Positions 944-20,582 of a stretch of DNA of 64,000 bases are shown here, piece by piece. The position numbers and the translations under genes are program-made. The notes under the pieces were generated by a model that was not told where the DNA came from, ran no database searches, and saw only the letters and a list, made by a program, of their open reading frames with translations. The stretch comes from Acidimicrobiales bacterium (lineage in GTDB: Bacteria; Actinomycetota; Acidimicrobiia; Acidimicrobiales; Bog-793): assembly GCA_050014835.1 (NCBI GenBank), contig JBEKCO010000003.1:733-64732 (forward strand), given 5' to 3'. Every line of letters starts with the position of its first letter. Within the stretch, counting starts at the first letter, position 1.

Positions 944-975
944 GGGATAGGTGATAGCGACGGCGGAAACGTCCG
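944..975 (+). repeat. Casposon left terminal inverted repeat (GGGATAGGTGATAGCGACGGCGGAAACGTCCG)
   Basis: The reverse complement of 18060..18091 is GGGATAGGTGATAGGGCGCGCGGAAACGTCCG. That is 28/32 identical, with the first 14 and last 13 nt perfect. Confidence 0.85.
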
Positions 976-1007
976 CTTTGCTTGGACAGAGTGGTCCCCG
1001 TGACGAG

Positions 1008-2240: not shown

Positions 2241-2394
2241 TCGAATCCCTTCTGGGCGCAACCAACCTCAGGCATGGCGATCAGAGCGCAGAACGCGACG
2301 CTATTGCAGTTCCGATCGACTCGTGTTGGGCCCGTTCCCACTTTCCAGAGGGGACACGTCCGCCTCGTCCTCGTCATAGCGCGAAACTGGTCGT

Positions 2395-3330: not shown

Positions 3331-3334
3331 CGAG

Positions 3335-6295: not shown

Positions 6296-6729
6296 TTGAT
6301 CCCGGGAAGACCCCGCCAGGGGGGAAGGTGCTCGTCCAGGGATCGCACCACGCCCGCGACCTCATCAGCCCAGCGTTGGAACGAGTCCGCAAGTTGGCGG
6401 AAGAAGGCCGCGAGGGAACGCATGGCGAGGGCGAGTCGCTCCAAGCAGGTTGGGGCACGGCCGGCGGGGAGCGCACCCACGTCTTGCTGGGCAGCCGTCG
6501 CCTTCGCGTGGCAGTTGCAGCAGACCACGACTTCTACTTCTTGGTCGTTCGCCTCACCGAGGGGATGGTGCGCCTGCAGGAGCTTGCGAGTCGATCGCCG
6601 AGCGGTGGTCTTGCGAAGCACGGTTGGATCGGTCTCGCCACATAGGGCGCATGCCGCATCCGGGGGCAGCGGTCGGGCTCTTTTCCTTCGGCGAACCTCG
6701 TTCTGGATTGGATCTGGATCTTGAATCAT
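6292..6729 (-). CDS. HNH endonuclease-like protein
   Basis: The ATG at 6729 is preceded by AAAGGAA. The sequence CALCGETDP...LQAHHPLGE...VVCCNCHAKAT gives a CxxC...HH...CxxCH layout typical of HNH. Its stop overlaps the polB start by 4 nt. The N-terminal 76 aa of the track ORF were rejected because they overlap the upstream gene. Confidence 0.65.
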   Translation of the reverse strand: MIQDPDPIQNEVRRRKRARPLPPDAACALCGETDPTVLRKTTARRSTRKLLQAHHPLGEANDQEVEVVVCCNCHAKATAAQQDVGALPAGRAPTCLERLALAMRSLAAFFRQLADSFQRWADEVAGVVRSLDEHLPPWRGLPGIK

Positions 6730-6739
6730 TTCGTTCCTT

Positions 6740-7267
6740 TCATGGTCCCGTGATGTAGATGTCGTCAATGTCGATCTCGCCACGCCGGAGGAACTCCTCG
6801 ACCTGGTCAGGATCTGTCGCCAACACGGCCCCGCCGACGCGTTTGCCCGCAAAGGGCGTGAGCACTCCAACGTCGCCCGTGGCTGCGAATCGCTGGATGG
6901 CGTTCCAGTGCCGGCCGACTGCCGAGCGGGCCTGAGACCCTCTGACGTCGACGTCAACGACTCCGTCGCTCGAGAGCACGCTCATGCGCTGGAAGCTGCG
7001 ATCCGAGGGAGTGGGCACATAGCGTTGCCCTTGCCGGACGAGCGAGTCGCCTGCGTAGCGGCGCACGGTCTCTGGCGTCGTGCCGTGCCTCCTCGCCGCG
7101 GTGCGAAGCGAGACCTTCTCGGTTCTCATCGCGCTGAGCGTCTCGAAGGCCTTGTGCCTTGCTTCGCGCTCAGCAGGTCTGAGCCGCTCGTATTCGCTGC
7201 GGCCCCGCACTTTGCGGGGCATAGTGCGCTGGCGATACTCGGCTGAGAAGTCACGGGTGCGGGCCAT
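6740..7267 (-). CDS. Hypothetical protein with a predicted HTH (casposon core operon)
   Basis: 175-aa ORF in the same operon as polB/HNH. The segment VSLRTAARRHGTTPETVRRY looks like an HTH. No family recognised. Confidence 0.5.
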   Translation of the reverse strand: MARTRDFSAEYRQRTMPRKVRGRSEYERLRPAEREARHKAFETLSAMRTEKVSLRTAARRHGTTPETVRRYAGDSLVRQGQRYVPTPSDRSFQRMSVLSSDGVVDVDVRGSQARSAVGRHWNAIQRFAATGDVGVLTPFAGKRVGGAVLATDPDQVEEFLRRGEIDIDDIYITGP

Positions 7268-7275
7268 CGCTTCAC

Positions 7276-7500
7276 TTAGCCGGTTCCGCCGCGTTGAGCT
7301 CCGAGACTGCGACGGCGGGCCAGGTCACGTACGGCCGCGAGTTGCTCGACATCGTCTCGAACCCAGAGCTGACCCAGAGGGGTCATCTCTCTCGGCACGA
7401 GGCGTCCCGATCGTGCAAGCTGCCGTACTCGCTCAGCAGAGATCCCGAGCCGTCGGGCAACCTGTGATGTCGTCATGAGCTGGCTAGATTCGTCAATCAT
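7276..7500 (-). CDS. Small MerR/excisionase-type HTH DNA-binding protein
   Basis: LMTTSQVARRLGISAERVRQLARSGRL is a classic Xis/MerR-like HTH. It is the first gene of the minus-strand core operon and is divergent from the cas1 operon. Confidence 0.6.
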   Translation of the reverse strand: MIDESSQLMTTSQVARRLGISAERVRQLARSGRLVPREMTPLGQLWVRDDVEQLAAVRDLARRRSLGAQRGGTG

Positions 7501-7559
7501 CTCGTTTGGACCTTATGGCTCCACAAGCGGCTACTTCAAGACTGGTGTAACCTGCAGAC

Positions 7560-8396
7560 GTGCCACTGAGCAGGGCCGAAATGGTGCTTGCCGCCAAAGG
7601 GGCGGGGTTCAGCGAGGTCTCAGAGCGGCTCGTCACTGACTGGGCACAGCTCGGGCTGCTCGATCATCCGCGACGAGCACCGCGGCCGAAGGGCTCTGGT
7701 CAGGGCGCGTTCTACCAGTGGTCGGACAATCAGCGGGAGTTGTTCTTACTCCTGCTGAGATGGCGCCAAGTGGTCCGATCCGTTGGCGCGCTGGCGGAAG
7801 TAACCGTCGCTGTATGGCTCTACCGGGACGACGAGTGGGCGACCTTGGCACAAGTGCGACGAGTACTGAAGACCTGGCGCGGCCGGTCTCCAAGGTCGTA
7901 CGAGCAGGCCGAACGTGACGCTCGAACCATTTGGAGAGCGGCTTTCGGCGATATCCAGGTGCCGGAGGATCGTCGTCGCTTTATCAAGGCACTTACGGAC
8001 CTCACTTACCGACGGGTTGCCGATGAAGCCAATGTGCGTGAGCTGGTCGTCGCGCTGTTTAAGCGCGTCCGCGGTCACCAATCGTGGGGGCCGTTCTCCT
8101 TCGACGCAGAGGACGTCGCGCGCTGGATTTACATGCTCATCGCTGGTGTCGAACGCTTCGAGAAGCTCGACGATGATCTGTGGAACGAGGCTCGAAAACG
8201 CCATCGCCAGCTCATCTTCGTGTACAGCCGAGAGTGGTCTCGCTTGTCCCAAGATCCTCAAGTCGGCTGGTTATTCGAAGACCAGACCTCAAAACCCTTC
8301 ATCACGAACGCATGCGAAATTCTGCTCGCTGGTCTGGGGACGCTGGCGTTGGAACTAGAGAAAGGTGACCAACCTGCGCCACTGACCGACGGCTAG
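7560..8396 (+). CDS. Hypothetical protein encoded immediately upstream of cas1
   Basis: 278-aa ORF with a GTG start. The N-terminus (RLVTDWAQLGLLD) is weakly HTH-like and the rest is helical with no recognised family. It is likely co-transcribed with cas1. Confidence 0.5.
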   Translation: MPLSRAEMVLAAKGAGFSEVSERLVTDWAQLGLLDHPRRAPRPKGSGQGAFYQWSDNQRELFLLLLRWRQVVRSVGALAEVTVAVWLYRDDEWATLAQVRRVLKTWRGRSPRSYEQAERDARTIWRAAFGDIQVPEDRRRFIKALTDLTYRRVADEANVRELVVALFKRVRGHQSWGPFSFDAEDVARWIYMLIAGVERFEKLDDDLWNEARKRHRQLIFVYSREWSRLSQDPQVGWLFEDQTSKPFITNACEILLAGLGTLALELEKGDQPAPLTDG

Positions 8397-8466
8397 CAAG
8401 AGCGATCAAGTGCCCCGGGCGAGGCTGCAACCTCCCCGGGGCTGGCACCGAAAGGAGTGCTTTCGA

Positions 8467-10026
8467 ATGCACCAACAAGCTACCGAGATGTTCGCCTCGG
8501 GCGCAGTCCGGGAGGGCATCTGCGTCGTCGACGGCTACGGCCTGAGGGTCGCCGTCGAGCGCCGCCATCTCGTGATCGCCGACGGCATCGGCCGTGCCCG
8601 CAGAGTCCGACGCTTCGCCCGAGGCGACCGGTCCCTCCGGAGGGTCGTCGTGATCGGCAACTCTGGGACCCTCAGCCTCGGTGCCCTCCGATGGCTGACC
8701 GATGTCAAGGTGCCTCTCGTGCACATCGACCTCGAGGGTCGTGTGCTGGCCGTATCCGGTGCGGAAGGCACCGACAGCCCGGCCCTGCGAAGGGCACAGG
8801 CCCTCGCCATGGCGAGGCCCGAGGGTCTCGAGGTAGCTCGTGGCCTAATCGCGAGCAAGCTCCAGGGCCAGCTCCGTGTCGCGTGCGGCCTGCTCGCAGA
8901 GGCCAAGGCCACGGCGGTCATCGAGGCAGCCATCGAGGATCTCGAGGGGGCTCGGTCGCTGAGCGAGATCCTCTCGGCAGAGGCCATCGCAGCCTCGGCC
9001 TACTGGCCAGCCTGGGCGGACGTCCCTGTTCGCTTTGCCAGGGCTGACCTAGCCTCGATCCCTTCCCGCTGGCTCACAGTCGGGCAGCGCAGGTCCCCGC
9101 TCTCGGAATCGGCTAGATCGGCGGTAGCGCCTGCGCACGCCATCTTGAACTACTGCTACGCCCTCTTGGCCGCCGAGGTGCGCATCGCCTGCCTGACGAT
9201 GGGGCTCGATCCCGGCCTTGGCATCCTCCATGCGGACAAGGCCAACCGGGACTCCCTTGTCGCCGACCTGATGGAGCCGGTGAGGCCGGAGTTCGACGCC
9301 CTCGTGCTCGAGCTGCTCGACCAGCGCACCTTCCGGGCCTCCGACTTCGCCGAGACGCGGGCGGGAGTCTGCCGGGTGCTAGCGCCGCTCACGCACGAAC
9401 TGGCCGAATCGGCCAGTCGCTGGAGCAAGACCGCAGGGGCTGTCGCTGAGCAGGTGGCAGCGGATCTCTCCAAGACGAGTGAAGGCAGGGTCCGGCGGGT
9501 GTCGACGCCGCTTACCCAGCGCAGTAGGGCGGCCGCCGTGAGGCAGTCGTACGGACACGAGGCTCCCAAGCCATCCCAATCCAGGAAGGTCGCTCCGACC
9601 TGCCGGTCGTGTGGCGCTCCGACGCCGAGGCAGGGCTACCTCTACTGCAATCGGTGCCGCCCGGAGCGGAAGGCCCAGGCCCTCGCGGCGCTCCAGGAGG
9701 CCCGGCGCATTGCTCAGGACCGACGTGACAGGGAGGGGCAGGACCCCTCGCGGAGCGAAGAGGCCCTTGCCAAGCAACGCCGATCGATGCAACGGCGTAG
9801 GCGCGAGGAGCAAGAGTGGGAAGAGGCCGGTGGCGAGGCGCAGGACCCGTCCGTCTTCATCGAGGAGATCCTCCCCCTCATCCAGCCCCTGTCGACCTTG
9901 CTGCTGTCGAGGGCGACGGGCCTGTCTCGCAGCTACTGCCTAGACGTCCGAGCCGGGAAGTACGTGCCGCACCCGAGGCACTGGGAGGCGTTCCGGCGAG
10001 CTGCCGACCCCGCGGCGGGCTGTTAG
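8467..10026 (+). CDS. cas1: Cas1-family integrase (casposase) with a zinc ribbon and C-terminal HTH
   Basis: N-terminal domain: VVVIGNSGTLSLGALRWLTDVKVPLVHIDLEGRV. Catalytic-domain signatures: SAEAIAASAYW (Glu codon 8980..8982), NYCYALLAAEV and GLDPGLGILHADKANRDSLVADLMEPVRPEFD (His 9229..9231, Asp 9265..9267, Glu 9274..9276). CxxC...CxxC lies at 9601..9657. C-terminal HTH-like segment: LSRATGLSRSYCLDVRAGKYVPHPRHW. The ATG at 8467 is preceded by AAAGGAG at 9-nt spacing; the track start at 8410 (GTG) is less likely. Confidence 0.9.
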   Translation: MHQQATEMFASGAVREGICVVDGYGLRVAVERRHLVIADGIGRARRVRRFARGDRSLRRVVVIGNSGTLSLGALRWLTDVKVPLVHIDLEGRVLAVSGAEGTDSPALRRAQALAMARPEGLEVARGLIASKLQGQLRVACGLLAEAKATAVIEAAIEDLEGARSLSEILSAEAIAASAYWPAWADVPVRFARADLASIPSRWLTVGQRRSPLSESARSAVAPAHAILNYCYALLAAEVRIACLTMGLDPGLGILHADKANRDSLVADLMEPVRPEFDALVLELLDQRTFRASDFAETRAGVCRVLAPLTHELAESASRWSKTAGAVAEQVAADLSKTSEGRVRRVSTPLTQRSRAAAVRQSYGHEAPKPSQSRKVAPTCRSCGAPTPRQGYLYCNRCRPERKAQALAALQEARRIAQDRRDREGQDPSRSEEALAKQRRSMQRRRREEQEWEEAGGEAQDPSVFIEEILPLIQPLSTLLLSRATGLSRSYCLDVRAGKYVPHPRHWEAFRRAADPAAGC

Positions 10027-10204
10027 GAGCTTGAGCCGTCGAGCGGCCCTCCGCGATCAGGGTTCGAGTCCCCCAGCGTCCGGTTCCGTCGGTCGCCCGA
10101 GGGATTGGGGTTCTGGCGGCGCAGTGCGGAGACTCCCGAGGCGTGCCGGGAGGCGGTCCGGGCGGACCCTCCGGTGGAGGGAGCCCACGACCGACCCCCG
10201 GCTC

Positions 10205-10753
10205 TCATGGGTGATTATCCCGAGGTCGCGGTCGCCTGAGTCCTTGGCGGTTCGGGACATTGACGTCGCTCGGTGACTCGGCTTGTGGACGGGCGACTGG
10301 CGGGGTTTTTCCAGGTTGATGCCGTTTTGCGTCTCGGATCGCTCCGGCGACGGTTGCATAGTCGTCTTCGTCGATCGGCACGAGCGTTCGGTGCATCACG
10401 CCGGGCCATTCTCGTTCGCTCCGAATCAACTTGAGCTGTGGGATTAACACTCGAAACGGTACGCCGTGGCGGAGCGGGAGCATGTCCTGGATCGTGATCG
10501 CGCAACTCTTCGCAAATGTCTCTCCTGCGACATCCTGTGTAATGGCCCTTACTGGAGAAGCGATCGTTCCCAGAGCGAGTAGCTGTGACTCATCCAGCGT
10601 CGGGTTGCCGTACGCGCCTCGCGAGGTATAGATCGCGAATCGGTCGCCCTTGTTCAGTTCCTCTGCCTTAACGTGCGCCCGAAAGGCCATGCATTTTTTG
10701 TCCAGTATCCACTTCAGCGCATCAGACTTTCCGATGACGATTAACCAGGGCAT
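10205..10753 (-). CDS. EVE/PUA-like (ASCH-superfamily) domain protein
   Basis: MPWLIVIG...KGDRFAIYTS...LALGTIASPV...VPFRVLIPQLKLI...RTLVPIDEDDYATV follows the EVE-domain pattern (N-terminal W, GD..h.Y.S, conserved beta strands). The tail is disordered and Pro/Arg-rich. Confidence 0.5.
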   Translation of the reverse strand: MPWLIVIGKSDALKWILDKKCMAFRAHVKAEELNKGDRFAIYTSRGAYGNPTLDESQLLALGTIASPVRAITQDVAGETFAKSCAITIQDMLPLRHGVPFRVLIPQLKLIRSEREWPGVMHRTLVPIDEDDYATVAGAIRDAKRHQPGKTPPVARPQAESPSDVNVPNRQGLRRPRPRDNHP

Positions 10754-10820
10754 CGTTCATCTCCGGTCGCGGCTTCGAAAGACTCCAGCGCGAGCAGGAC
10801 ACATCGTCCTGACGGCGGCC

Positions 10821-11708
10821 TCATTCAAGCAACTCCTGTACTTCGGTTGCGGATAAGTCAAGTAGGCCAAGTTGCGCCGCCTTCGCACCTTTGCGGCCCA
10901 ATGCCCAAGGCTTAGGATACATGCCTGTTACGGAGTAATCGGCCCCGTTGTCGCGGAGGAATCTCTGGAGAGGTTGGTACGGAATTCGTTTCAACTTCCC
11001 GAAATTCGTGTCCTCATTGAAGTCGTAACCCTCAGATTCCTTGCGACCGTAGTGCTCGGTGTCGACAGGCAACCCGTTGGATTTCTTGGCCTTGCCGATC
11101 CGGCTCAAGATCGCGGGTGTCTCGAAATCCCCAAACCAGTAGCCGCCAGACACGCGGAGCCGATGGTCACGAGCGCGAATGCATTCGATCATCGAGAAGA
11201 CCGCCAGGTTCGTTATGGTCGGGCAATACAGCTCAGCGTCGTGTCTGTGAGGTTGGAGCTGATACGCGAGGAGCAACATCACGTCGCGGCTGGGGTCAAC
11301 GTTCTTCACTGTGACCTTCTGGGTAAGGCGTGCCGAGGGCTCCCGTCTCGTTTCCGTTACCTTCATCACCGCCTCAGCGGGATCGACGTAGAGCAGTTTC
11401 AACTCCAGCCGCTTCCCCGAAGGTTCGTGGAGGTAGTCCGGATACCCCTCTCTGTCCTTCAGAATGCCCTCGTGCTTGACGAGTCCGAGTGCTCGGAAGA
11501 GTTCCCCTTGGCCTTGAACGATCTTGTCGAGCTGGGGAATGCAGGCATCCATCAACACACCCACAATCGTCCCGATCTGAGACGGTTCGAATCCGATAAG
11601 GATCTCTCGTGGGAGCTTCAGGACCTCGAACTGGACTTCGATAAGGCCCGAAAGCGCGGCGTGCAGGTCGTCGAGCTCCGATTGGGTGATCTCGGGAGCG
11701 ACCGTCAC
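10821..11708 (-). CDS. Putative Type II restriction endonuclease (PD-(D/E)xK)
   Basis: YPDYLHEPSGKRLELKLLY provides a PD...ExK motif. The GTG start at 11708 overlaps the stop of the upstream controller gene (GTGA). The gene is divergent from the M/S genes. The track's 5' extension to 11846 overlaps the C gene and was rejected. Confidence 0.55.
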   Translation of the reverse strand: MTVAPEITQSELDDLHAALSGLIEVQFEVLKLPREILIGFEPSQIGTIVGVLMDACIPQLDKIVQGQGELFRALGLVKHEGILKDREGYPDYLHEPSGKRLELKLLYVDPAEAVMKVTETRREPSARLTQKVTVKNVDPSRDVMLLLAYQLQPHRHDAELYCPTITNLAVFSMIECIRARDHRLRVSGGYWFGDFETPAILSRIGKAKKSNGLPVDTEHYGRKESEGYDFNEDTNFGKLKRIPYQPLQRFLRDNGADYSVTGMYPKPWALGRKGAKAAQLGLLDLSATEVQELLE

Positions 11709-12037
11709 CGCTGACCCCTCCCTCTTGGAGTTGTGCGGTCGTGGGTAACCAGTACCCGGAGCGACGGGGGAAGGACGGAAGGGAGATCCACGCCCAGCGC
11801 CGAGCAGAGATCTAAGGCCTCGATCAGGTCGATCCGCCGCTCGCATGTTTCAATCTTCGACACGTACGCCTGTGTGCGGCTCAGTCGGGATGCAAGTTCC
11901 GCCTGGGTGAGCCCTGCTTGTCGGCGAGCGGCGCGGAGTCGCGCAATCACCTCCGCGTATCGAGGGTCGTGGATCGACGTGGGCTGGTCTCGATTCCCCA
12001 GTTTGGAGTTCGTCGATATCTTTGTCACCGGCCACAT
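11705..12037 (-). CDS. XRE-family HTH controller (C) protein of the R-M system
   Basis: RQAGLTQAELASRLSRTQAYVSKIETCERRIDLIEALDLCSALG is a canonical XRE/Cro HTH. It lies directly upstream of the nuclease gene and is translationally coupled to it. Start taken at the ATG at 12037. Confidence 0.65.
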   Translation of the reverse strand: MWPVTKISTNSKLGNRDQPTSIHDPRYAEVIARLRAARRQAGLTQAELASRLSRTQAYVSKIETCERRIDLIEALDLCSALGVDLPSVLPPSLRVLVTHDRTTPRGRGQR

Positions 12038-12091
12038 CCGAGCCGACTGGGCGGCTAACTCCAAATTCGATTATTTCACGGCCCATGACGG

Positions 12092-13468
12092 ATGACGCTC
12101 CGCAGAGCCACACTGAGCTACAATGCCCGGGAGTCGGGAGAACAACGGGAGAACATCTTGGCCAAGCGTCACCATCTTGTGCGGGGCAGCTGGGAGTCGA
12201 TCTTGGGGCGGCTCGAGGAGCTCGTGCTGGCGAACTCCGGAGAGGACGAGTTCCAAGAGATCTTCAAGCTGCTCCTCGCGAAAGTTTACGCCGAGAGCCA
12301 CCATCAGTCGGAGGGTCTGTTCGCAACCGCGAAGACACCCGAGCAGACCGCTCGAAACATCGATGACTTGTTAGGTCTTGCTGCCCGGCAATGGAAGGGT
12401 GTCCTCGAGGACGCCCCAACGATGCGGCTACGACCAGATCACATTGCGGTTTGCGTCGAAGCAATTGAACATGTCGGACTTCTCGACTCGAACCTCGAAG
12501 TCTTGGATGCGCTATTCGAGGATTTGATGAGTAAGTCATCGAAGGGAGCAAAGGGCCAGTACTTTACGCCTCGCTACGTCGTCGACTGCTGCGTAAAGCT
12601 CGTAGACCCAAAGCCCTCCGAGACTGTGATGGACCCCGCTTGCGGCTCCGCCGGCTTCCTGATTCACACGCTCACTTATGTCAAAGAGCAGAATCCGAGT
12701 CTCGATTTGAAGGAGTATGCACGATCGCGAGTCTGGGGTGCGGACTTCGACCCGCGGGCGATTCAAGTAGCTCGGGCACTTATGCTCGTAGTTGGTGACG
12801 GCCACAGCAACTTGCTGCGGATCAACAGTCTCCTGACGCCGACCGCGGCGCCTGATCTGTTCGATAGCACCCCGACGGCCATGAACGAGCCGACTCTCGA
12901 GGACCTGTTGCGGACTCGATGGAGTTCGTTCAGCGGGTTCGACGTAATCATGACTAATCCGCCGTTTGCCGGCGAAGTCCGGGAACCGGAACTTCTCGGA
13001 CGTTACCAATTGGCTCGTAAGTCTGGGCGTACGGAGCGCGACATTCTCTTTCTCGAGCGCTGCTTGTCTCTGCTGCGACCTGGGGGACGGTTAGCAATCG
13101 TTCTTCCTCACAACAAGTTCGCATCCTCGGTTTGGGCTTATGCGCGTCAGTGGCTGATTCAGCGCGCACAGATCGTCGCGGTGTTAGGTTTAGGTCGCTA
13201 CACGTTTCTTCCTCATACAAGCCAGAAGGCAGCAATCCTTTTCCTTCGCAAGCGAGATCACATCGAGCGATCCCCCGATAAAGAGCCGATTCTCTTCCTT
13301 TTGAGCGAACGAGACGGCAAGAATTCGAAAGGCGAAATCATTCCGCGGGGAGGAGTCGCGTTCGACGCTCCCGCCTGGGTGAGAGCGGATCACGACTTGA
13401 GTGAGGTCGTGCCTGTCTTCTCGGAATTCATAGAAGCCAACGGCATCGAGTGGGCAACCCATGGCTAG
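12092..13468 (+). CDS. N6-adenine DNA methyltransferase, HsdM-like (N6_Mtase family)
   Basis: Motifs seen: GQYFTPR, motif I DPACGSAGFL and motif IV NPPF (12956..12967). Confidence 0.85.
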   Translation: MTLRRATLSYNARESGEQRENILAKRHHLVRGSWESILGRLEELVLANSGEDEFQEIFKLLLAKVYAESHHQSEGLFATAKTPEQTARNIDDLLGLAARQWKGVLEDAPTMRLRPDHIAVCVEAIEHVGLLDSNLEVLDALFEDLMSKSSKGAKGQYFTPRYVVDCCVKLVDPKPSETVMDPACGSAGFLIHTLTYVKEQNPSLDLKEYARSRVWGADFDPRAIQVARALMLVVGDGHSNLLRINSLLTPTAAPDLFDSTPTAMNEPTLEDLLRTRWSSFSGFDVIMTNPPFAGEVREPELLGRYQLARKSGRTERDILFLERCLSLLRPGGRLAIVLPHNKFASSVWAYARQWLIQRAQIVAVLGLGRYTFLPHTSQKAAILFLRKRDHIERSPDKEPILFLLSERDGKNSKGEIIPRGGVAFDAPAWVRADHDLSEVVPVFSEFIEANGIEWATHG

Positions 13469-14132
13469 AAGCGCTGTGGTCCGGGTTGCCGACCTGGACT
13501 TTGGCACCGTGCTTGCGCCCGAGCGGTATGACCCCCGGCGACAAGTCGTGAGCGAAGGTATCCCACTGACCGATGTGTGCATGATTGTTCGGGAGAGCGT
13601 CAGCAGCAGCGGCAGGGCCGGGCAGGCTGATCGCCTCTACTACGTGCTCGATACATCCGCGGCTCGGGAGGGGTTTCTCGTCATTGATCGCCCACCAGTG
13701 CCTCGGGCGGACATAGGCAGCCTCAAGAAGCGGGCTCAGGCGCGGGACGTCCTGATTTCGCGCCTTCGCCCTTACCTTCGACAGGTCGCCTACGTGGATG
13801 ATGAGGCGGTGAACTGGGAAGAGGCCGAGCTCGCGTGCAGCACGGAGTTCTACGTTCTTCGTCCACTCGACGGCCGTAGCATCGCTTTCCTAATTCCGTT
13901 CCTTTTGAGCCCGGGGGTTCAGGCTCTCCTCGCGGCATCTCAGGAAGGTGGGCATCACCCGCGCGTCAACGAAGCAACGCTTCGGAGTCTCAGAATCCCA
14001 CGGGACGTGATCGCGACGCGGGCGGAAGCCTCTACCAACTTGGAGCAAGCTGCTGGTGACATGCGCCGTGCTACGCAAGTCGTCGCCAGATTGGTGGCGA
14101 AAGCATCGGAGAGCTGGGTTAACCCTACCTAA
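13461..14132 (+). CDS. Half-size specificity (S) subunit with a single target-recognition domain
   Basis: Overlaps the M gene stop by 8 nt. RDVLISRLRPYLRQV, STEFYVLRP and HHPRVNEATLRSLRIP resemble the Methylase_S (HsdS) TRD plus conserved helix. At 223 aa it is about half of a Type I HsdS. Confidence 0.7.
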   Translation: MARSAVVRVADLDFGTVLAPERYDPRRQVVSEGIPLTDVCMIVRESVSSSGRAGQADRLYYVLDTSAAREGFLVIDRPPVPRADIGSLKKRAQARDVLISRLRPYLRQVAYVDDEAVNWEEAELACSTEFYVLRPLDGRSIAFLIPFLLSPGVQALLAASQEGGHHPRVNEATLRSLRIPRDVIATRAEASTNLEQAAGDMRRATQVVARLVAKASESWVNPT

Positions 14133-14363
14133 GCCCAGACTGCCGCGGGTGCGTGCCCCCGTAATTCAGCACCTGCAAACTGGGGTGTGCCCTAAGTTTC
14201 GTTGATAGTGTCAACCAAACCCGGACCGGACTTGGGCGGCGTGAGCCCAGAATCGACCGTCCGCCGAGCCCCGTCACATCCCTATCTTGACCTGTGAATG
14301 GCCCTCATCGTGTCGACGAGGGCCGAAGGGGCGCTGGGAAGGCGGCTGACGCCCCGGAGGCGG

Positions 14364-14384
14364 CCGACGCCCCGCAGGCGTCGG
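14364..14384. terminator. GC-rich hairpin between convergent cargo modules (possible bidirectional terminator)
   Basis: CCGACGCC-ccgca-GGCGTCGG gives a perfect 8-bp stem. There is no clear U-tract. A second hairpin, GGCCCTC...GAGGGCC, lies at 14300..14324. Confidence 0.25.
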
Positions 14385-14487
14385 AAGGTTCGCAGTGCTG
14401 GGTCGGGGTGGTGATTCTCGCCGTTGTGCTGACGGCAAGCCCGCGAGACGGCTGCCCTATTCAAACGGCAACTTCTCCATCTCGCGG

Positions 14488-15120
14488 CTACAAGGTGCGA
14501 AGAAACTCAATAAGCGGTCGGAATGCGATATGACTCCAGTCGAATACGTGGTTGTCGGCGGCTTCCCCGATCAATCTCTTGCCCTTCGACGCGACCAGAG
14601 CTTGCATCTTCAATTTCGACTCGTGTGCTGCATTCATAGATACCATTCCGGTTATACAGCTAGCGAACGGCTCAACACATCCCATGTGAGGATCGCCGGC
14701 CATGCAGTCGAGGAAGATATCTTCAAAAACGCCATTTCCTGAGTTGTCGGGAGAGATGAAGACAGTCACGTCGGGTGTTCCCCGTGCTCGGCTCAATGGG
14801 GCAGCTGGAACGGATAGGCCTGCAACCTCAAGAGCACCAGTGACATTGGACCACGAAACGGCGAAGCTTTGTTCCGCGTCGCACAGAATGCCAACGGATT
14901 GGACCTCAGAGAAACCACTCGCCTTTCTGGCTACACTCAGCTTCTCACCGAGATTGGTCCTTCCGTGCAGGTCCCGCAGTCCAAGTCCCGAAATCGATTG
15001 GTCTTGCATCAACGCTGCAATCGCTCGAAACTCATCGTCGCCCTCTACAAAGAGCACCTTGCGTTGCGCAGATGCATCACCCCATTTAAGGGTCGACACC
15101 CTATCGGACCTCAAATCCAA
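14488..15120 (-). CDS. TOPRIM-like small protein (DUF4435/DUF3226/RloB-like superfamily)
   Basis: KVLFVEGDDEFRAIAALM is an EG.D motif typical of TOPRIM-like DUF4435/DUF3226 proteins, followed later by FISPDNSGNG. It lies immediately downstream of the ATPase gene. The start is ambiguous: TTG at 15120 overlaps the ATPase gene by 20 nt, while GTG at 15099 sits just after the ATPase stop. Confidence 0.5.
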   Translation of the reverse strand: MDLRSDRVSTLKWGDASAQRKVLFVEGDDEFRAIAALMQDQSISGLGLRDLHGRTNLGEKLSVARKASGFSEVQSVGILCDAEQSFAVSWSNVTGALEVAGLSVPAAPLSRARGTPDVTVFISPDNSGNGVFEDIFLDCMAGDPHMGCVEPFASCITGMVSMNAAHESKLKMQALVASKGKRLIGEAADNHVFDWSHIAFRPLIEFLRTL

Positions 15121-16264
15121 GTTCGAGAGCTTCCCCTAGTTCCTCGGCAGTAAACCCAATGGCCTTAACTGCCTCGCCATCGCGCTCAACACGAAAGACC
15201 CGGAAGTCCTCACCGCTCGGCAACAATCCAGGATCTCGACTGAAATATCGTTGCGCAGCAGCTATACACTCAAGTGAGTGCGTTGTCGCAACCAATTGGA
15301 CTCGGGACTGTCTCGTCGCCTGGTCAAGCGACGCCCAAATGGATTCGAGCACCGAGTAATGAAATCCGTTTTCAATCTCGTCAATTAGCAACAGGCCGTC
15401 GCGTGCCGAAGCGGCGTCAACAAGCAGGGAAGTGAGCTTCTCGGTCCCTTCACCCATAAGCTTCAGCGGCATCTGATGGCCGATGCCGATGTCGCCGTAG
15501 AGCTGAGCACCGATGGGAGTCGCGACAGTCGTGATGTCCTTCAGACGGGGCTCCATCATCTTAAGGCTCTCGACCAATTCTGGAACTTGCTTTTGAACCA
15601 CGAGTTGTCCAAACAGTTGTGCCAATTCGTTAGGGTTCCCATCCGCTCGACTGGGCCGATAGATAGCGGGCATGGTGGCTTGAGGAAGAGCGCCTGACAC
15701 GCGTAGTTGGCCGCTCTGTTCGAAGATTATGTAACCCGTAGTTTGTGGAATCATAAATCCGGACGAAGTTTGCTTCCCTGGGACTTGTAACTCCAAAACA
15801 TGTGGCTGCGCCCCAAAGGCCCATACCTCCGAATCAACAATTGGTTGCCCCGGGAATAGCACAGGAGCAACTTTCTCTTGGATCTCCTGGGCGTCGATGA
15901 GGTTCCTGAGGCGCAAGGTTGACGTTTCCGAATTGTTTGTGGTGATAGCAATTTCGATTGGCTGAGAGACCTCGTATCTGTGAAACCATGCTGCCCAAGG
16001 CGCCTCAACACCGCGCATAAACGGTTGGAAGCCCCAGTTTGGTGAATTTCTGACAGGGGCATTCAGGACCAGCATGAAATTGTTGAACGGCATGTTCTTG
16101 AGCTGCAGAGCTTCAAGGACCGCGGTCTTTCCAACATTGTTTAATCCTGCAATGAGGTTGATTCGGGCCAGAGGCTCAAGGATCAGGTCTTTGAATCCTC
16201 GGAAGTGCGAAATGTTCGCGCGGCGAATGAACCGACCGTCAGTCCCTGACGATTCGAAGGTCAT
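15101..16264 (-). CDS. ABC-type (AAA_21-like) ATPase
   Basis: Walker A is GLNNVGKTAVLEAL and Walker B is LLLIDEIENGFH, followed by VATTHS (H-loop). It is about 390 aa with a long insertion between the two motifs, as in OLD/AriA/RloA-type ATPases. Confidence 0.8.
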   Translation of the reverse strand: MTFESSGTDGRFIRRANISHFRGFKDLILEPLARINLIAGLNNVGKTAVLEALQLKNMPFNNFMLVLNAPVRNSPNWGFQPFMRGVEAPWAAWFHRYEVSQPIEIAITTNNSETSTLRLRNLIDAQEIQEKVAPVLFPGQPIVDSEVWAFGAQPHVLELQVPGKQTSSGFMIPQTTGYIIFEQSGQLRVSGALPQATMPAIYRPSRADGNPNELAQLFGQLVVQKQVPELVESLKMMEPRLKDITTVATPIGAQLYGDIGIGHQMPLKLMGEGTEKLTSLLVDAASARDGLLLIDEIENGFHYSVLESIWASLDQATRQSRVQLVATTHSLECIAAAQRYFSRDPGLLPSGEDFRVFRVERDGEAVKAIGFTAEELGEALELGFEVR

Positions 16265-16483
16265 TGCAAACTCAGTCTCCTACGGAAACAAGGCTTGAAT
16301 TGGCCGAAGTTAGCACCCCCGCGCGTGACCTGCTTGGGCTGCCTGAGCTTTGCGACGAGCCTTCACCATCGCGCACACCGACCGCCGACCTTGCGTGTGC
16401 CTGATCGTCGGCACTGTGCGCTACTCCGACCTATCCGGCCAGCATCCCCGACGACAAGACCGTTGAGTGCCATCCTGGATCAG

Positions 16484-17557
16484 GTGCGAATACGCGGTGG
16501 AGGTCAGCCCCTCTTCAATCGGAGCTCGCGTCACTTGGGGACTCGCGATCGCGTCGGTCGTTTTCCCCGAGACGAGGCTTGGGGTCTGATCTCATCAGTT
16601 GCCCAACGCCTCTGGCCTGCTCTGCTGGGGGTGACGTTCCTACCCACTATTTTCTTTCTGCCCGCTTTCTTCCTGCTACACGGGGCAGCGCGCTGGGTCA
16701 CAGTTGGTGCGGTAGCTATCTCTGGACCATGGATCGTCGCGCTCATCACGATTGTCATGAGCGGTGCATCCGATCTCTTCATGGGCCTTGAATCGGAAGG
16801 TGACACTGCGGATGTTCTACGAAGTCTGCGGCACGACGGCTGGAAGTTGGCGAACGGCATCAAGATTCGGGGAAACCAAGACATCGACCATCTGGTTGTT
16901 GGTCCGGCCGGGCTCTTAGTGGTCGAGACGAAATGGAGTCGACATCGTTGGCCTCTCGGAAAAGACAGCGAACCGTTCATGCGGGATCGCTTGTCCGATG
17001 CCGTGGACCAGCTGCTTCGCAATCGTGAGGATGTCATTACTCAATTCGGCAAAGTCATCAACGGTGCGCCAGTTCGGCCAGTCTGCGTTGTTTGGTCGCC
17101 GGAAGATTCAGCTGGCGATGATCCCTGGGTCGATTTCGACGGCGCCCTCGTCGTTCGCGGACCCGCCCTCAGGTCGTGGCTGCGGACCTTGACTGACGTA
17201 GCACTCGACGAGCGCGGTATTGATCGAGTTTGGCAAGAGGTAACGCTCCACTACGCGCTACGCGACAAAAATGATCGCTCGCGCTCATATCGACCTCGCC
17301 GAACGATTATCAGGGTCGCCGTGGATTGGTTCCTGGCACCATTCCTCGGCTTCGTGTTGGCTTTTTATGGATTGGTGGCCGTTGTCCGCCTTCATCAGTC
17401 ATGGCTTGATATCGCCGGCCCCCTGGTCTTCACGGCAGTTGGTGTTGCGGTACGACGCGTCGCTTTTCTCCGTCGGGTCGCTGTCGGCTGGATCGTAGGC
17501 TCCGTCGGGTCCGTTTTGATTCTCCTGGCCTTTGTCATCCGCGACGTCGTCAGGTAA
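16484..17557 (+). CDS. NERD-domain protein flanked by transmembrane segments
   Basis: GLESEGDTADVLRSLRHDGWKLANGIKIRGNQDIDHLVVGPAGLLVVETKWSRHRW matches the NERD pattern (EGE...W...DIDHLVVGP.G..VVETK). Hydrophobic helices lie before it (LLGVTFLPTIFFLPAFFLL, VTVGAVAISGPWIVALITIVM) and after it (FLAPFLGFVLAFYGLVAVV, GPLVFTAVGVAV, VGSVGSVLILLAFVI). The start is uncertain: GTG at 16484 was chosen, and the track gives TTG at 16295. Confidence 0.65.
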   Translation: MRIRGGGQPLFNRSSRHLGTRDRVGRFPRDEAWGLISSVAQRLWPALLGVTFLPTIFFLPAFFLLHGAARWVTVGAVAISGPWIVALITIVMSGASDLFMGLESEGDTADVLRSLRHDGWKLANGIKIRGNQDIDHLVVGPAGLLVVETKWSRHRWPLGKDSEPFMRDRLSDAVDQLLRNREDVITQFGKVINGAPVRPVCVVWSPEDSAGDDPWVDFDGALVVRGPALRSWLRTLTDVALDERGIDRVWQEVTLHYALRDKNDRSRSYRPRRTIIRVAVDWFLAPFLGFVLAFYGLVAVVRLHQSWLDIAGPLVFTAVGVAVRRVAFLRRVAVGWIVGSVGSVLILLAFVIRDVVR

Positions 17558-17678
17558 CTGGCCAGTGATCCCTCAGCCCACGGACTCAAGCAGCGTCCCA
17601 AGTTGTTCCTCGAAGCCCCGTCGCAGGGGTGCCTCACATCGCCGGCTCGGCGGCCGCCGCGGGGGACGATGAAGTCGG

Positions 17679-18026
17679 TTACTTGGTCGTTCTTCGGCGA
17701 CCGGAAAACCAGACTCGCTGCTGATTTCGATCAACTCGGATGACCTGCCTACCGTTGTCGAGCCAGGCGCGTGCATGCACATGTGTTGTTGCTTTACTTC
17801 GATCGAGCCACCACGCGTCGTAAGTGAACGCCGACATCGGCAATGAGATTCCGAGACGTTCGATCTCGCTGAACGACATTTGGAGAGGGCCGTCGTCGGT
17901 GGAGCTGAGAAATTCATAGAGCGGGTCATACTTGGCCACGCCCGAATCTTGACATGTGCGCCAGTCAACTGGGTCGGCTGTACCCCATAACGATGGGCGG
18001 GCACCTTCTGGTGCCCGGAGCGTCAA
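17679..18026 (-). CDS. Small hypothetical protein (conserved KYDPL...SFSEIE...LP.SA...WW motif family)
   Basis: 115-aa ORF. VAKYDPLYEFLSSTDDGPLQMSFSEIERLGISLPMSAFTYDAWW resembles a widespread uncharacterised domain often found on mobile or defence loci. An alternative GTG start lies at 17939. The gene ends 34 nt inside the right TIR. Confidence 0.45.
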   Translation of the reverse strand: MTLRAPEGARPSLWGTADPVDWRTCQDSGVAKYDPLYEFLSSTDDGPLQMSFSEIERLGISLPMSAFTYDAWWLDRSKATTHVHARAWLDNGRQVIRVDRNQQRVWFSGRRRTTK

Positions 18027-18059
18027 GTGCTTGCTGTTGCGAGCGGCGCACCCCGCTCA

Positions 18060-18091
18060 CGGACGTTTCCGCGCGCCCTATCACCTATCCC
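18060..18091 (-). repeat. Casposon right terminal inverted repeat
   Basis: The reverse complement, GGGATAGGTGATAGGGCGCGCGGAAACGTCCG, matches 944..975 at 28/32 positions. Confidence 0.85.
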
Positions 18092-18105
18092 TGTATGGAG
18101 GTGCG
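18092..18105. repeat. Target-site duplication, right copy (TGTATGGAGGTGCG)
   Basis: Identical to 930..943. On the minus strand it encodes part of PHLHT of the relaxase. Confidence 0.85.
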
Positions 18106-18574
18106 GATCCTCAGCGCGGCTCGTCCGGTGGAGGAACGACGCAGCAGCGAAACCGGGCGAGGCGACGGGCGCGCCGGAGCGGCGCACAGTCGCGGCGTGC
18201 CTCTCCAGGTACCCGAGGGCCCCGGCGACCGCACGCTCATGCGAGGCGCGCACCTGCTCCACGGTTTCCGGCCCGCCGAGGGCGTGGAGGACGCTTACGG
18301 ACTTCGGTGCGGCAAAGGTGCAGTCGAAGGCCGCGACGGTGACCCGGCCATGGCGGGGATCGAGCGCCTCGCCGCTCGTCGGATCCACGCCGGCGAGCAG
18401 CATCGTCAGATTCGCGGCGTCGACGGTCCGGTCCGCGAGGCCGAGGCCCTCGGCGAGGATCCCCCACCAGACACCGTCGGGTTCGACGAGTCCCGGCCGA
18501 TCGGGTGCCGCCGCCCGCGTCGACTCGAGGTAGTACGTCTCGCGTCCTCGCCGCACCTTCGCCACGCTCAGCAC
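18092..18574 (-). pseudogene. TrwC/MobF-family relaxase, N-terminal fragment truncated by the casposon
   Basis: MLSVAKVRRGRETYYLES...GVWWG...AAFDCTFAAPKSVSVL...ASHERAVAGALGYLERHAATVRR...ASFLHRTSRAEDPHLHT is the canonical TrwC relaxase N-terminus. After HLHT (ending at 18092) the frame runs into TIR sequence (GIGDRARG...) and stops at 18023. Confidence 0.85.
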
Positions 18575-18663
18575 GCCGAGCGACCGTACGAGGGGGCGGT
18601 CGTCCGCGACCTACCGCCGCAGAAGCGGGGTCCACCCCCGAGGCGCCCCGACGGAAGGCGTCG

Positions 18664-19623
18664 CTACGACGCGCCCCGGTAGCGGACGAGCGCGCGGCGG
18701 GCGACGTCGGCGGCGGCGCCGACGAGCTCGGGCGGGTCGACCACCTCGGCAGACGCGCCGAGCCGGAGAACGAGGCGGCCGACGAAGTACCCGTCGGCGA
18801 CCATGATCGGAGCCACGACCCGGCCGTCGGGCAACGGCGTCGGCGGCGCCGCCACGAGCCGGTCAATGAGCACGTACGCGGACCGGTCGAAGGCGACGTG
18901 GGCGATGCGGGCATCCCCACCCCCCACGAACGCCCGGGTCCCGGTGAGCTCGGGCGGAAGCGATCTCGGCGTGACGGGTTCGCCGAGGCGACGGACGGCG
19001 GTGATCCGCGCCACCTGGAACCGTCGCCAGTCCCCGGCCAGGCCGCAGAAAGCGTCGAGGTAGAACCTGCCCTCGCGGGCGACGACGGCGTAGGGCTCGA
19101 CCCGTCTCGCCGTCTCGTCGCCGCGCTTCGCCCCCAGGTAGTCGATCTCCACCGCTTCACCCGCCGCGGCGGCGGCGCGAACCGCTTCGAGGTTCTCGGG
19201 AGTGTCGAGCTCGACGGCCACGCGTTCGAGCCCGAGCGCGTTCCCGAGCTTGGCGAGGGCGGTGGCGAGCGGACCCTCCGCCTCGGCGCCCTCGACGTCA
19301 AGCATCGCCCGGGCGGCGGCGGCGAGCGCGAAGCCCTCGTCCGGCGTGAGACGTGCCGGACGCCGGAGGGCATCGAGCCCGAACGCGACGACACGCTCGT
19401 CGTCGACGATGAGCTCGAGCAGCGTGTCCGGCGTGTACGGGGGCAGCCCGCAGCAGGCGGCGAGCTCGAGCTCGCCGACGAGCGCCCGCTCGTCGAATCC
19501 GAAACGCGCCGCAAGCTCGGCGATCGAGCTCTCGCCGACGCGGGCGAGATAGCTGAGGACGGCGAGCAGCCGGCGCAACCGTGTCCCCGCGTCGAGCGGT
19601 TCGGGAGGGCGATCGACCGTCAC
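18664..19623 (-). CDS. HTH-WYL transcriptional regulator, PafC-like
   Basis: N-terminal wHTH (LLAVLSYLARVGESSIAELAARFG) and a WYL-type core (YAVVAREGRFYLDAFC). The GTG start overlaps the upstream stop (GTGA). Confidence 0.7.
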   Translation of the reverse strand: MTVDRPPEPLDAGTRLRRLLAVLSYLARVGESSIAELAARFGFDERALVGELELAACCGLPPYTPDTLLELIVDDERVVAFGLDALRRPARLTPDEGFALAAAARAMLDVEGAEAEGPLATALAKLGNALGLERVAVELDTPENLEAVRAAAAAGEAVEIDYLGAKRGDETARRVEPYAVVAREGRFYLDAFCGLAGDWRRFQVARITAVRRLGEPVTPRSLPPELTGTRAFVGGGDARIAHVAFDRSAYVLIDRLVAAPPTPLPDGRVVAPIMVADGYFVGRLVLRLGASAEVVDPPELVGAAADVARRALVRYRGAS

Positions 19624-20582
19624 GTCGTCTTCCCGGCTCGCGCCGCGGCCTCGAGGCGGCGAACAACGTTGCGGCGCATATCGGGAGGACCGATCACCTC
19701 GATCGCGTCACCAAAACCGAGCACCCACAACAAGAACGCCTCCTCGTCGCCGACGGGGAACACGAGGCGCACCGATCCGTCGTCGGCGCGGTCGCGCACC
19801 GCCGCCGTGCCGACGAGAGCGACGACCCCCGCGGCCTCGCGGGCGTCGACGGCGACCTCGACCTCGGTCCACTCCGGCTCAACCGGTCCATCCCGGCTCG
19901 GCTGGAACGGCACGAAGCGCAGCTCGTTCGCGGCGTCGAAGCCCTCGGGGCGCTCGTAGCCCCCGGGGGTTCCCGCGACCGGATCGCTTTCGAACCGGTC
20001 GACCCGGAAGCGGCGCAATCCCCCGGGGTCCGCCGCTTCGGCGTCCCGCCCGACGAGGTACCAGCTGCCGCCGCGGAAGACGAGCCCGTAGCCGTGAACC
20101 CGGCGGTCGCGTCCGTGGTAGGCGAAGGCCACCGGCGCCCGGTCCCGGATCGCCTGCTGGAGCAGCCCGAGCGCCGGGAGCGACGGGAGGACCGCGACGG
20201 GGGCGACATCTGCCGCCCCCTGGGAGCCGAGCTTGTGGAGGACCTCGTGGCCGGCCCCGCCCTCGAGGTGCACCGAGAGCAGCGCGAACGACAGCGCCGC
20301 TTCCTCCTCCGGCGTGAGACCGAGATCGGGCAGGTAGTACTGCTCGGGTAGGATGCGGTAACCGACCTGGTCGTCGCCGTCGACGCGCTCGACGGAGATC
20401 GGTATCCCGTTGTCGCGCAGGGTGCGTTTGTCGCGTTCGAATGCCTGGCGGAGCGCTCCCGGCGCGGCGGGGTAGCCGGCGACGGCGAGGCCGATCTCCC
20501 GCAACGACAAGGGACGGGGGGCGTCCAGCAGGGCCAAGACGAGGTTCGTGATCCGCTCGAGCCGGTTCAGCCTCGTCGACAT
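19620..20582 (-). CDS. HTH-WYL transcriptional regulator, PafB-like
   Basis: LERITNLVLALLDAPRPLSLREIG forms a wHTH and GLVFRGGSWYLVGRD contains a literal WYL motif. It is paired with the downstream paralogue. Confidence 0.7.
   Translation of the reverse strand: MSTRLNRLERITNLVLALLDAPRPLSLREIGLAVAGYPAAPGALRQAFERDKRTLRDNGIPISVERVDGDDQVGYRILPEQYYLPDLGLTPEEEAALSFALLSVHLEGGAGHEVLHKLGSQGAADVAPVAVLPSLPALGLLQQAIRDRAPVAFAYHGRDRRVHGYGLVFRGGSWYLVGRDAEAADPGGLRRFRVDRFESDPVAGTPGGYERPEGFDAANELRFVPFQPSRDGPVEPEWTEVEVAVDAREAAGVVALVGTAAVRDRADDGSVRLVFPVGDEEAFLLWVLGFGDAIEVIGPPDMRRNVVRRLEAAARAGKTT

Follow-up and report, generated by a model that had tools for sequence, protein, structure and literature searches.

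The window analysed here, a 64,000-nucleotide stretch of an Acidimicrobiales contig (JBEKCO010000003.1, assembly GCA_050014835.1), contains at positions 944–18091 a complete casposon of 17,148 bp, hosted by an uncultured soil actinobacterium with a high guanine-plus-cytosine (GC) content. The element is laid out as a left cargo bay (976–3334), a core with a variable middle, and a right cargo bay (10,027–18,059), the core being composed of a family B DNA polymerase (PolB), an HNH-like gene, a conserved gene termed orf175 and the Cas1 casposase. The explanation that best accounts for the right bay, and that is probably correct, is that it represents the cargo of an intact casposon, filled with low-GC modules of horizontal origin. 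On balance, and with more reserve, a broader reading is slightly favoured, in which a casposon clade homes via Cas1 to the DNA encoding the catalytic histidine triad of MOBF/TrwC relaxases, in either orientation, both ends act as exchangeable defence bays, and different casposons compete over a single 14-bp site within a given host lineage; a restriction-modification (R-M) subtype with an EVE reader partner would be a secondary novelty of this reading.

The casposon is complete, since it combines terminal inverted repeats (TIRs), a target site duplication (TSD), Cas1, PolB motifs and an HNH-like open reading frame (ORF). The TIRs, at 944–975 and 18060–18091, are 32 nt long and 88% complementary to each other; the left one reads GGGATAGGTGATAG...AACGTCCG, with a terminus that is kept in relatives. 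Two perfect copies of the 14-bp TSD, TGTATGGAGGTGCG, follow immediately outside, at 930–943 and 18092–18105. The Cas1 casposase (8467–10026, plus strand, 519 aa) matches Pfam Cas_Cas1 (6e-39) and NCBIfam cas1 (5e-31), carries a C-terminal CxxC...CxxC segment and retains E172, H255, D267 and E270, which are invariant in the alignment. It is not accompanied by cas2 or a CRISPR array, as no CRISPR-array-like repeat family was detected in 500–19000 and no Cas2 among the scanned ORFs of the element. The same layout recurs in ten loci from different samples, in ENA, JGI and Logan assemblies (24 contigs with the same Cas1 were read).

The 986-aa PolB (3335–6295, minus strand) is assigned by its motifs, read directly in the ORF as DTETT (Exo I), FNLPFD (Exo II), YCRQD (Exo III), DFTSMYP (A), KIVANAGSFG (B) and CDTDS (C), because searches of Pfam and of PDB sequences were empty at the thresholds used; a weak match to a PHROG DNA polymerase (4e-4) was obtained, and the gene shows 79–90% nucleotide identity to those of relatives. 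With every family B motif and no profile match, this polymerase lineage appears to lie outside current profiles. In one related locus (L011, 3625–6766; L-numbers label the compared loci, which are metagenome contigs or genomes) gene calling divides the PolB region into overlapping ORFs of 318 and 736 aa, as it does in L012, suggesting a frameshift and hence a decaying copy or an assembly error. The neighbouring 145-aa protein (6292–6729, minus strand), also called in L002–L008, appears to be an HNH-like zinc-finger protein from its CxxC...HH...CxNCH motif, with no profile match. Orf175 (6740–7267, minus strand), a conserved protein of 175 aa, is found in 21 of the 30 surveyed elements and in every close relative.

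Between cas1 and the right TIR, profiles and folds bear out the gene order that an earlier note had proposed from the letters alone: an EVE protein, a controlled restriction endonuclease, a methyltransferase with its specificity subunit, an ATPase with a TOPRIM-like partner, a NERD protein and a small protein. Most of these identities hold by profile or fold at the level of domains; the endonuclease is placed by its motif, its operon context and weak fold matches, with no profile match. The note had further expected abrupt changes in composition at about 10.1 kb and 18.09 kb, and the sliding GC profile indeed falls from 0.70 (9751–10250) to 0.58 (10251–10750) at the border of cas1 and rises from 0.59 (17501–18000) to 0.72 (18001–18500) at the right end. 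Over the whole region, GC is 0.73–0.76 up to about position 900, 0.52–0.70 between about 950 and 18,050, and 0.72–0.76 after 18,100. In summary values, the arm stands at 0.58, cas1 at 0.69 and the host flank at 0.70–0.75. In windows of 200 bp, the right arm (0.583±0.044) differs from cas1 (0.691±0.009; Mann-Whitney p=6e-5) and from the right flank (0.696; p=3e-14). The classes are set apart even better by GC at third codon positions (GC3), which is 0.57–0.71 in cargo genes, 0.86 in PolB, 0.83 in Cas1 and 0.85–0.89 in host genes, the core agreeing with the host in codon composition.

The low GC that had been attributed to the right arm is real, but it is not confined there: the left arm (976–3334) is also cargo and is equally low (0.586), and low-GC cargo is therefore no property of the right arm alone. 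As for the origin of the cargo, acquisition in modules and at a late stage agrees with the GC3 contrast and with arms that are not shared with relatives. The cassette formed by the R-M genes of the right arm has a GC of 0.57–0.60 in unrelated genomes, below that of those hosts too; lower-GC donors, the other part of the proposal, are therefore plausible rather than demonstrated, and the cassette may never ameliorate. Among relatives, the arms are mostly lower in GC than their own cores, the exception being the left arm of L014.

The cargo varies among copies of the casposon. Four close relatives, with Cas1 proteins 82–90% identical to that of the window, were compared (L011, L014, L017 and L019). 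In blastn searches only 3347–7281 (PolB, HNH-like gene and orf175) and 8410–10006 (cas1) align to them, with 7411–8410 aligning additionally in L017, and both arms of the window element are unique with respect to the four. The relatives end in the same TIR terminus (GGGATAGGTGATAG) and show perfect 14-bp TSDs where both ends are present. Their own arms, which lie inside the transposon ends as expected of a cargo island, differ from one another. L011 carries a pP_pnuc_1 protein on the left, and an NYN protein and a type I R-M system (HsdR/S/M) on the right; L017 carries an NsnA/PD-T4-2_A-like protein (4e-71) with HEPN on the left and a type III R-M system (MTase_III, 2e-218) on the right. An NsnA-like protein (3e-74) with HEPN is also found on the left of L019, whose right arm contains McrBC, MazG-like, HerA-like and methyltransferase genes, while L014 presents a 422-aa protein without assigned function on the left and mostly such proteins, an ion channel and an HNH protein on the right. 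Recognised defence genes are present in one or both arms of four of the five elements of the close clade (window, L011, L017 and L019) by simple count, which supports the earlier suggestion that the casposon would act as a vehicle for defence systems. In PLSDB there is no counterpart of the right arm and none of this Cas1. Within the right arm of L019, a forward near-copy of the TIR terminus (GGGATAGGTGATCG) is found at 17841, which may be left over from the end of another casposon or have arisen by chance.

The insertion splits a gene for a TrwC (MOBF) relaxase. Its C-terminal part (1–929, minus strand; GC3 0.88; labelled TrwC in L001) runs off the start of the window, and its N-terminal fragment (18106–18574, minus strand), also host DNA, matches Pfam TrwC (2.4e-35, profile positions 22–158 of 286) and ends in ...DPHLHT. 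When 944–18105 is removed in silico, the two fragments join into one ORF on the minus strand, at least 470 aa long, with the junction inside the histidine-triad motif (DPHLHT|HLVIAN). In the trwC frame, all four of the fully delineated insertions duplicate the PHLH(T/S) codons, which are preceded by a conserved FLHRTSRA(E/P)D. When metagenome contigs were scanned with the TIR terminus, two further insertions at the motif came to light, L121 (ALDPHLHS|TIR) and L208 (RTSRASDPQLHT|TIR), and the left flank of L019 resembles the L208 junction. The codons for DPHLH(T/S)H have been hit by elements in either orientation, and the relaxase alleles affected number at least four (window, L011, L014, L017, L019, L121 and L208). 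The flanks of L017 are 99.3–99.6% identical to those of the window and its TrwC protein is 100% identical, while the casposon found at these 14 bp in L017 is inverted, has a core only 88–90% identical and holds other cargo; a single site has therefore received two distinct casposons within one host lineage. From these sequence comparisons, the relaxase site is the specific target of the lineage and not an accident. The earlier note had described a relaxase knock-out, and the case is now stronger than it claimed, as removal of the element restores one TrwC ORF and other TrwC genes carry relatives of the element at these very codons. None of the papers searched links casposons to relaxase targets.

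The genomic surroundings place the relaxase in a mobile element. Two tandem WYL/PafC-type regulators lie beside it in the window (18664–20582), followed by TypA/BipA and envelope biosynthesis genes, and in L017 a TraG/TrwB-type coupling protein adjoins trwC. Given the housekeeping genes beyond the WYL pair and the coupling protein of L017, the relaxase belongs to a chromosomally integrated mobile element, at the edge of which it has been interrupted. A tRNA was also considered as the target of the window element and was rejected, since RNA gene scans detected no tRNA or Rfam family in 1–20000.

Other sites are used by elements that share the TIR terminus or the wider family. L120 and L150 have the same terminus and lie beside a tRNA or tRNA-like 3' end (tRNA-Arg in L150), and distant members are found at tRNA-Glu (L031 and L034) or at TSDs that start with TCAA or end with TTGA. 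The former applies to L026, L045, L055, L065, L069, L071, L073, L076, L087, L097 and L098, and the latter to L070, L077, L079, L082, L092, L094 and L099; TCAA at one edge of the TSD in many distant members implies a different conserved target. With regard to the scan itself, a bare 14-mer of the TIR returned mostly chance matches, and the inner AACGTCCG motif was present in 10 of the 120 loci returned.

Of the modules in the right arm, the one nearest to cas1 is an R-M system made of two divergent gene pairs. On the plus strand, an N6-adenine DNA methyltransferase (M) of type I HsdM-like character (12092–13468; Pfam N6_Mtase, 1.7e-32; PADLOC MTase_I, 1.1e-90) is followed by a half-size specificity (S) subunit of 223 aa (13461–14132; PADLOC Specificity_I, 1.1e-13, and Specificity_II, 5e-8), which overlaps the end of M by 8 nt. 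There is no HsdR, as profile scans found no ResIII or helicase gene in the element. On the minus strand, a controller (C) protein of the helix-turn-helix (HTH) type (11705–12037; Pfam HTH_31, 2.3e-11, and HTH_3, 1.8e-10; PADLOC Control_protein, 1.2e-7) lies directly upstream of, and co-oriented with, a putative type II restriction endonuclease (R) of 295 aa with a PD-ExK motif (10821–11708), the stop codon of the former (11705–11707) abutting the start of the latter at 11708. A promoter scan of 10000–18100 was uninformative.

The putative endonuclease has more than 1000 family members, all annotated as 'hypothetical', and found no match in Pfam and PDB sequence searches; its assignment therefore draws on the motif, the operon context and the fold. 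P90, D91, E102 and K104 (PD91...E102-x-K104) are invariant in 24 homologues, and the top Foldseek matches of its AlphaFold2 (AF2) model (predicted local distance difference test, pLDDT, 86) are only restriction enzymes and MutH (EcoRV, MutH, SwaI and HincII), weak as they are (E ~0.01, template modelling (TM) score 0.2–0.3). The strongest argument for a cognate endonuclease comes from the recurrence of the cassette: an S-M<>HTH-X arrangement, in which X is a homologue of the 295-aa protein, is found among unrelated neighbours in a Solirubrobacterales metagenome-assembled genome (MAG) and in another 6-Mb genome (L020 and L021), with HTH genes of 86–99 aa at the equivalent position.

The divergent R/C and M/S pairs match the architecture of an AhdI-style type II R-M system, with the endonuclease as a putative member. 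AhdI possesses an M2S2 methyltransferase and is organised in C-R and M-S units (PMC2275141, PMC2878638). Both systems comprise four genes, with a type-I-like M and a separate S in the methyltransferase, no HsdR, and a C-protein co-transcribed with a separate endonuclease, putative in the window; the operons are divergent in the window and convergent in AhdI, and the window has an EVE-fold gene after R. This likeness is one of gene architecture, and no C-box was identified in the window. M and the half-size S would presumably assemble into an M2S2 enzyme for adenine methylation at a bipartite site, the C-protein would delay the expression of the endonuclease, and R would cut unmethylated incoming DNA.

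The EVE protein (10205–10753, minus strand) is a stand-alone protein of 182 aa with an EVE/PUA-like beta-barrel and a disordered basic tail. Its AF2 model (pLDDT 79) matches in Foldseek 2p5d (2e-8, target-normalised TM 0.79), PH1033, 2eve, YTH domains, THYN1 and the EVE-HNH enzyme VcaM4I, and its sequence matches NCBIfam PRK00809 (5e-7) and PDB 2p5d (0.007). The family is small, with six clusters. In L102 (5192–6474), genes for an EVE homologue (50% identity) and an endonuclease homologue (76% identity) share 4 bp at the stop of the latter, and a different pair of N6_Mtase and S genes, with 27–28% identity, comes after the EVE gene. R and EVE are thus kept as a pair beside differing M and S genes, which makes the EVE protein a probable accessory of the neighbouring endonuclease and its R-M module and not a separate system; the link is provisional. 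As a reader of modified bases, the EVE protein would probably serve the endonuclease, and the conserved adjacent pair of endonuclease and stand-alone EVE may define an R-M subtype with an EVE accessory. The association of an EVE/PUA-like fold with a nuclease is shared with modification-dependent enzymes of the VcaM4I type (PDB 6yex). The window EVE differs from these in being a separate polypeptide, with no HNH or PD-(D/E)xK fusion, and in sitting in a methyltransferase-containing system that is blocked by modification.

The second module consists of an ATPase and a small protein on the same strand. The ATPase (15101–16264, minus strand) is of the ABC/AAA_21 type and resembles AbiLi, PDC-M38A and AriA (PADLOC, 1.5e-49, 2.3e-43 and 2.5e-20, respectively), with further matches to Pfam AAA_21 (5.6e-16) and PDB PtuA (1e-4). 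Its adjacent partner (14488–15099, minus strand) is a DUF3226 protein with a TOPRIM-like VEG...CDAE pattern (Pfam DUF3226, 4.9e-22; PADLOC PDC-M38B, 1.4e-7), and together they correspond to the A and B components of PDC-M38. A full HMMER search retrieved about 1600 relatives of the DUF3226 protein, with VEG...RDAD as the pattern of the alignment, in which G20 and D74 do not vary and E19 hardly does. The protein of the window itself matches the DUF3226 and PDC-M38B profiles and no TOPRIM profile; the term TOPRIM-like holds at the level of the family, because 9 of 25 members match OLD-like_TOPRIM (best 2.5e-6) and 2 of 25 match DUF4435, the AriB domain. A PDB sequence search with the DUF3226 protein gave spurious matches only, and DUF3226 is mentioned in none of the papers searched.

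By analogy, the ATPase and the DUF3226 protein would be a split pair of the OLD/PARIS/AbiL type, that is, the sensor and the effector of an abortive infection system, with the two acting as a sensor-nuclease in the manner of PARIS, AbiL or OLD. An ABC-type ATPase adjoining a co-oriented small TOPRIM-type protein is common to PARIS (AriA/AriB), AbiL, class 2 OLD/Gabija and PDC-M38. The partner found here is DUF3226 and neither DUF4435 (AriB) nor AbiLii, which sets the pair apart from PARIS and AbiL. Neither of these two systems proper was accepted as an identity, given that the ATPase matches AbiLi and AriA while its neighbour matches neither AbiLii nor AriB/DUF4435. The R-M system and the ATPase–DUF3226 pair are the only two modules that are recognised systems.

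The remaining right-arm genes are a NERD gene and a DUF7662 gene. The first (16295–17557, plus strand; gene callers start at 16535) encodes a polytopic membrane protein with a central NERD domain, which is PD-(D/E)xK-like (Pfam NERD, 9.2e-11), and four to five hydrophobic helices, two N-terminal and two to three C-terminal (110–128, 137–165, 338–364 and 397–415); its motif is D196...E211-x-K213, with the sequence DIDHLVVGPAGLLVVETK. The second (17679–17939, minus strand) encodes a small DUF7662 protein (Pfam, 2.5e-11), called with 86 aa in L003, L004 and L008. That DUF7662 might be a conserved core gene near the element end was considered and rejected, as it has no similarity to the end-proximal ORF of L017. 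On the left, the cargo comprises orf410 (1008–2240, minus strand, 410 aa, GC3 0.66), which is absent from related casposons and has no Pfam, PADLOC or PHROG match, and an Mrr_cat protein of the PD-(D/E)xK restriction-endonuclease-like type (2395–3330, plus strand; Pfam Mrr_cat, 5.2e-7; GC3 0.67). The variable middle holds a 74-aa HTH protein (7276–7500, minus strand; Pfam HTH_17, 4e-7, and MerR_1, 1e-5) and, upstream of cas1, a 271-aa protein (7581–8396, plus strand) without profile match in Pfam or PHROG, whose DNA is shared with L017 and which clusters with ORFs of three other elements.

The wider Cas1 family comprises at least 438 confirmed relatives in a genome scan, hosted by soil MAGs of Acidimicrobiia, Thermoleophilia, Chloroflexota, Acidobacteriota, Gemmatimonadota and Eremiobacterota. 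The nearest among the matches listed in that scan is from Acidimicrobiales, with 63% identity. The nearest genome-based relative (L022, Acidimicrobiales) has a right flank that is not TrwC-like, its left end lying beyond the 10-kb flank. The cargo of the family was surveyed in 128 arm ORFs from 25 delineated distant elements (Cas1 35–50% identity), where recurrent defence matches were to type I/II methyltransferases, S subunits, ThsB/TIR, HEC-01A ATPases and PDC-S66. Defence genes recur in the cargo of the family without monopolising it, and their concentration is clearest in the TrwC-targeting clade. In one Acidobacteriota chromosome, two different casposons (L055 and L097; OY969555.1, overlapping ranges 414–449 kb) lie side by side with a shared TSD 12-mer, TCAACGCGGGCG, which looks like insertion in tandem at a single target, an arrangement described in Methanosarcina mazei.

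Several observations weigh against the reading of the arms as defence bays of a relaxase-homing casposon. With regard to the R-M module, the endonuclease has no profile match, PADLOC REase_II reaching only 0.003, and its matches in fold are weak; no inverted repeat of at least 8 nt was detected in 11960–12110, which leaves the 54-bp divergent region with no C-box-like repeat, bearing in mind that C-boxes can be imperfect; and the R-EVE linkage is seen in two contexts only, with EVE absent beside another close homologue of the endonuclease. The DUF3226 protein departs from its family in having CDAE in place of DAD, and it gave no AbiLii match (E<=0.01) and no AriB or DUF4435 match in PADLOC and Pfam. 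PDC-M38 itself is, to our knowledge, a candidate system of PADLOC without validation. Furthermore, the EVE, NERD, DUF7662, orf410 and Mrr-like proteins have no PADLOC match, and the distant arms are mixed, with BNR, TPR, RHS, histidine-kinase, response-regulator, RepB and transposase domains among their matches. As for the target, an exact 27-mer search of metagenome contigs found no empty relaxase site.

These same gene identities are compatible with a different role, in which the cargo is mainly selfish and stabilises the casposon by penalising its loss, through post-segregational killing by the R-M system and by the ATPase-nuclease pair as a toxin. C-controlled type II R-M systems are classic addiction modules (PMC3874152), and the insertion appears to be fixed, with one layout in ten loci and no empty site in the search described above. 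In the relatives, however, McrBC (type IV) and the NsnA/PD-T4-2_A-like proteins with HEPN have no methylation-based addiction logic, and the exchange of cargo among hosts that are nearly identical is what diversifying selection would produce, as it does in defence islands. Addiction is thus an unlikely main role, albeit one that is not mutually exclusive with defence. It is considerably less probable that the nucleases and the ATPase serve the life cycle of the casposon, in excision, end processing or replication, and not immunity. Early descriptions did give casposon nucleases and helicases roles in integration and replication (PMC4046053), but the arm genes are not conserved even among elements with Cas1 82–90% identical, where life-cycle genes should be part of the core, and the methyltransferase, S subunit and C-protein are components of a complete R-M cassette that is also found outside casposons. 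A chimeric assembly, or an unrelated island abutting a casposon remnant, could be suspected behind the low-GC stretch from the metagenomic origin of the data and the abrupt change in composition at both ends, but is hardly credible, since all 17.1 kb are enclosed by the TIRs and a perfect TSD, the removal of this segment restores the relaxase ORF, profile scans of the arm ORFs found no integrase or insertion sequence (IS) inside either arm, and the identical layout, assembled by different pipelines in ten loci from independent samples, rules out a chimera.

The preferred reading, that of a casposon with two defence bays and a relaxase target, suggests the following sequence of events. Cas1 would join the element by its TIR ends to the relaxase motif, with a stagger of 14 bp, an insertion that splits the relaxase of an integrated mobile element; PolB would replicate the element, and the terminal bays would gather modules by recombination. 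The modules would be active and protect against phages and plasmids, with the EVE protein in its probable accessory role. If this is true, a single insertion immobilises a conjugative or mobilisable element and arms the host, in a natural case of conflict between mobile elements. The clade also offers a defined 14-bp target in a relaxase gene, and with it a testable pair of bacterial casposase and target, as well as a source of candidate defence genes (orf410, the membrane NERD protein, DUF7662, the R-EVE pair and the DUF3226 TOPRIM pair).

Work on casposons has dealt mostly with archaea and has centred on the part of these elements in the ancestry of CRISPR adaptation; they are regarded as poor in cargo. 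The size of the family described here suggests that this casposase is common in uncultured soil bacteria. The element of the window has several features in common with family 3 casposons (PMC4046053), namely a Cas1-solo casposase, a family B polymerase, an HNH-like gene, TIRs, a 14-bp TSD and a bacterial host, and its Cas1 shares C-terminal Zn-binding and HTH-like extensions with that of the family 3 member AceAut-C1; the likeness to this family, which includes StrAlb-C1, HenMar-C1, NitAL212-C1 and AceAut-C1, is one of shared features. The median TSD of casposons is 15 (PMC4046053). The casposons of the literature lie beside tRNA or aEF-2 genes, which they leave intact (PMC4046053), whereas the lineage of the window splits a relaxase gene at its catalytic motif. 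With regard to cargo, some casposons were described with sporadic methyltransferase and restriction endonuclease genes (Krupovic et al. 2014, PMC4046053), and in a survey of 48 known casposons the density of defence genes was below that of pipolins (PMC11551731); the clade of the window differs from known casposons in having two exchangeable terminal bays dominated by defence systems. The data suggest that this clade shuttles restriction and abortive-infection modules via its terminal bays in the manner of Tn7-like transposons (PMC8649781) and pipolins (PMC11551731), with which it shares a conserved mobility core, a variable cargo rich in R-M, abortive-infection and further defence systems, and site-specific insertion. 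It differs from both in that its integrase is Cas1 and not TnsABC or a tyrosine recombinase, in that cargo is present at both ends, and in that its target lies inside the coding sequence of another mobile element. The interpretation as a two-bay carrier of defence cargo, with an unprecedented target that is specific to the relaxase and disrupts its gene, thus appears to be largely right.

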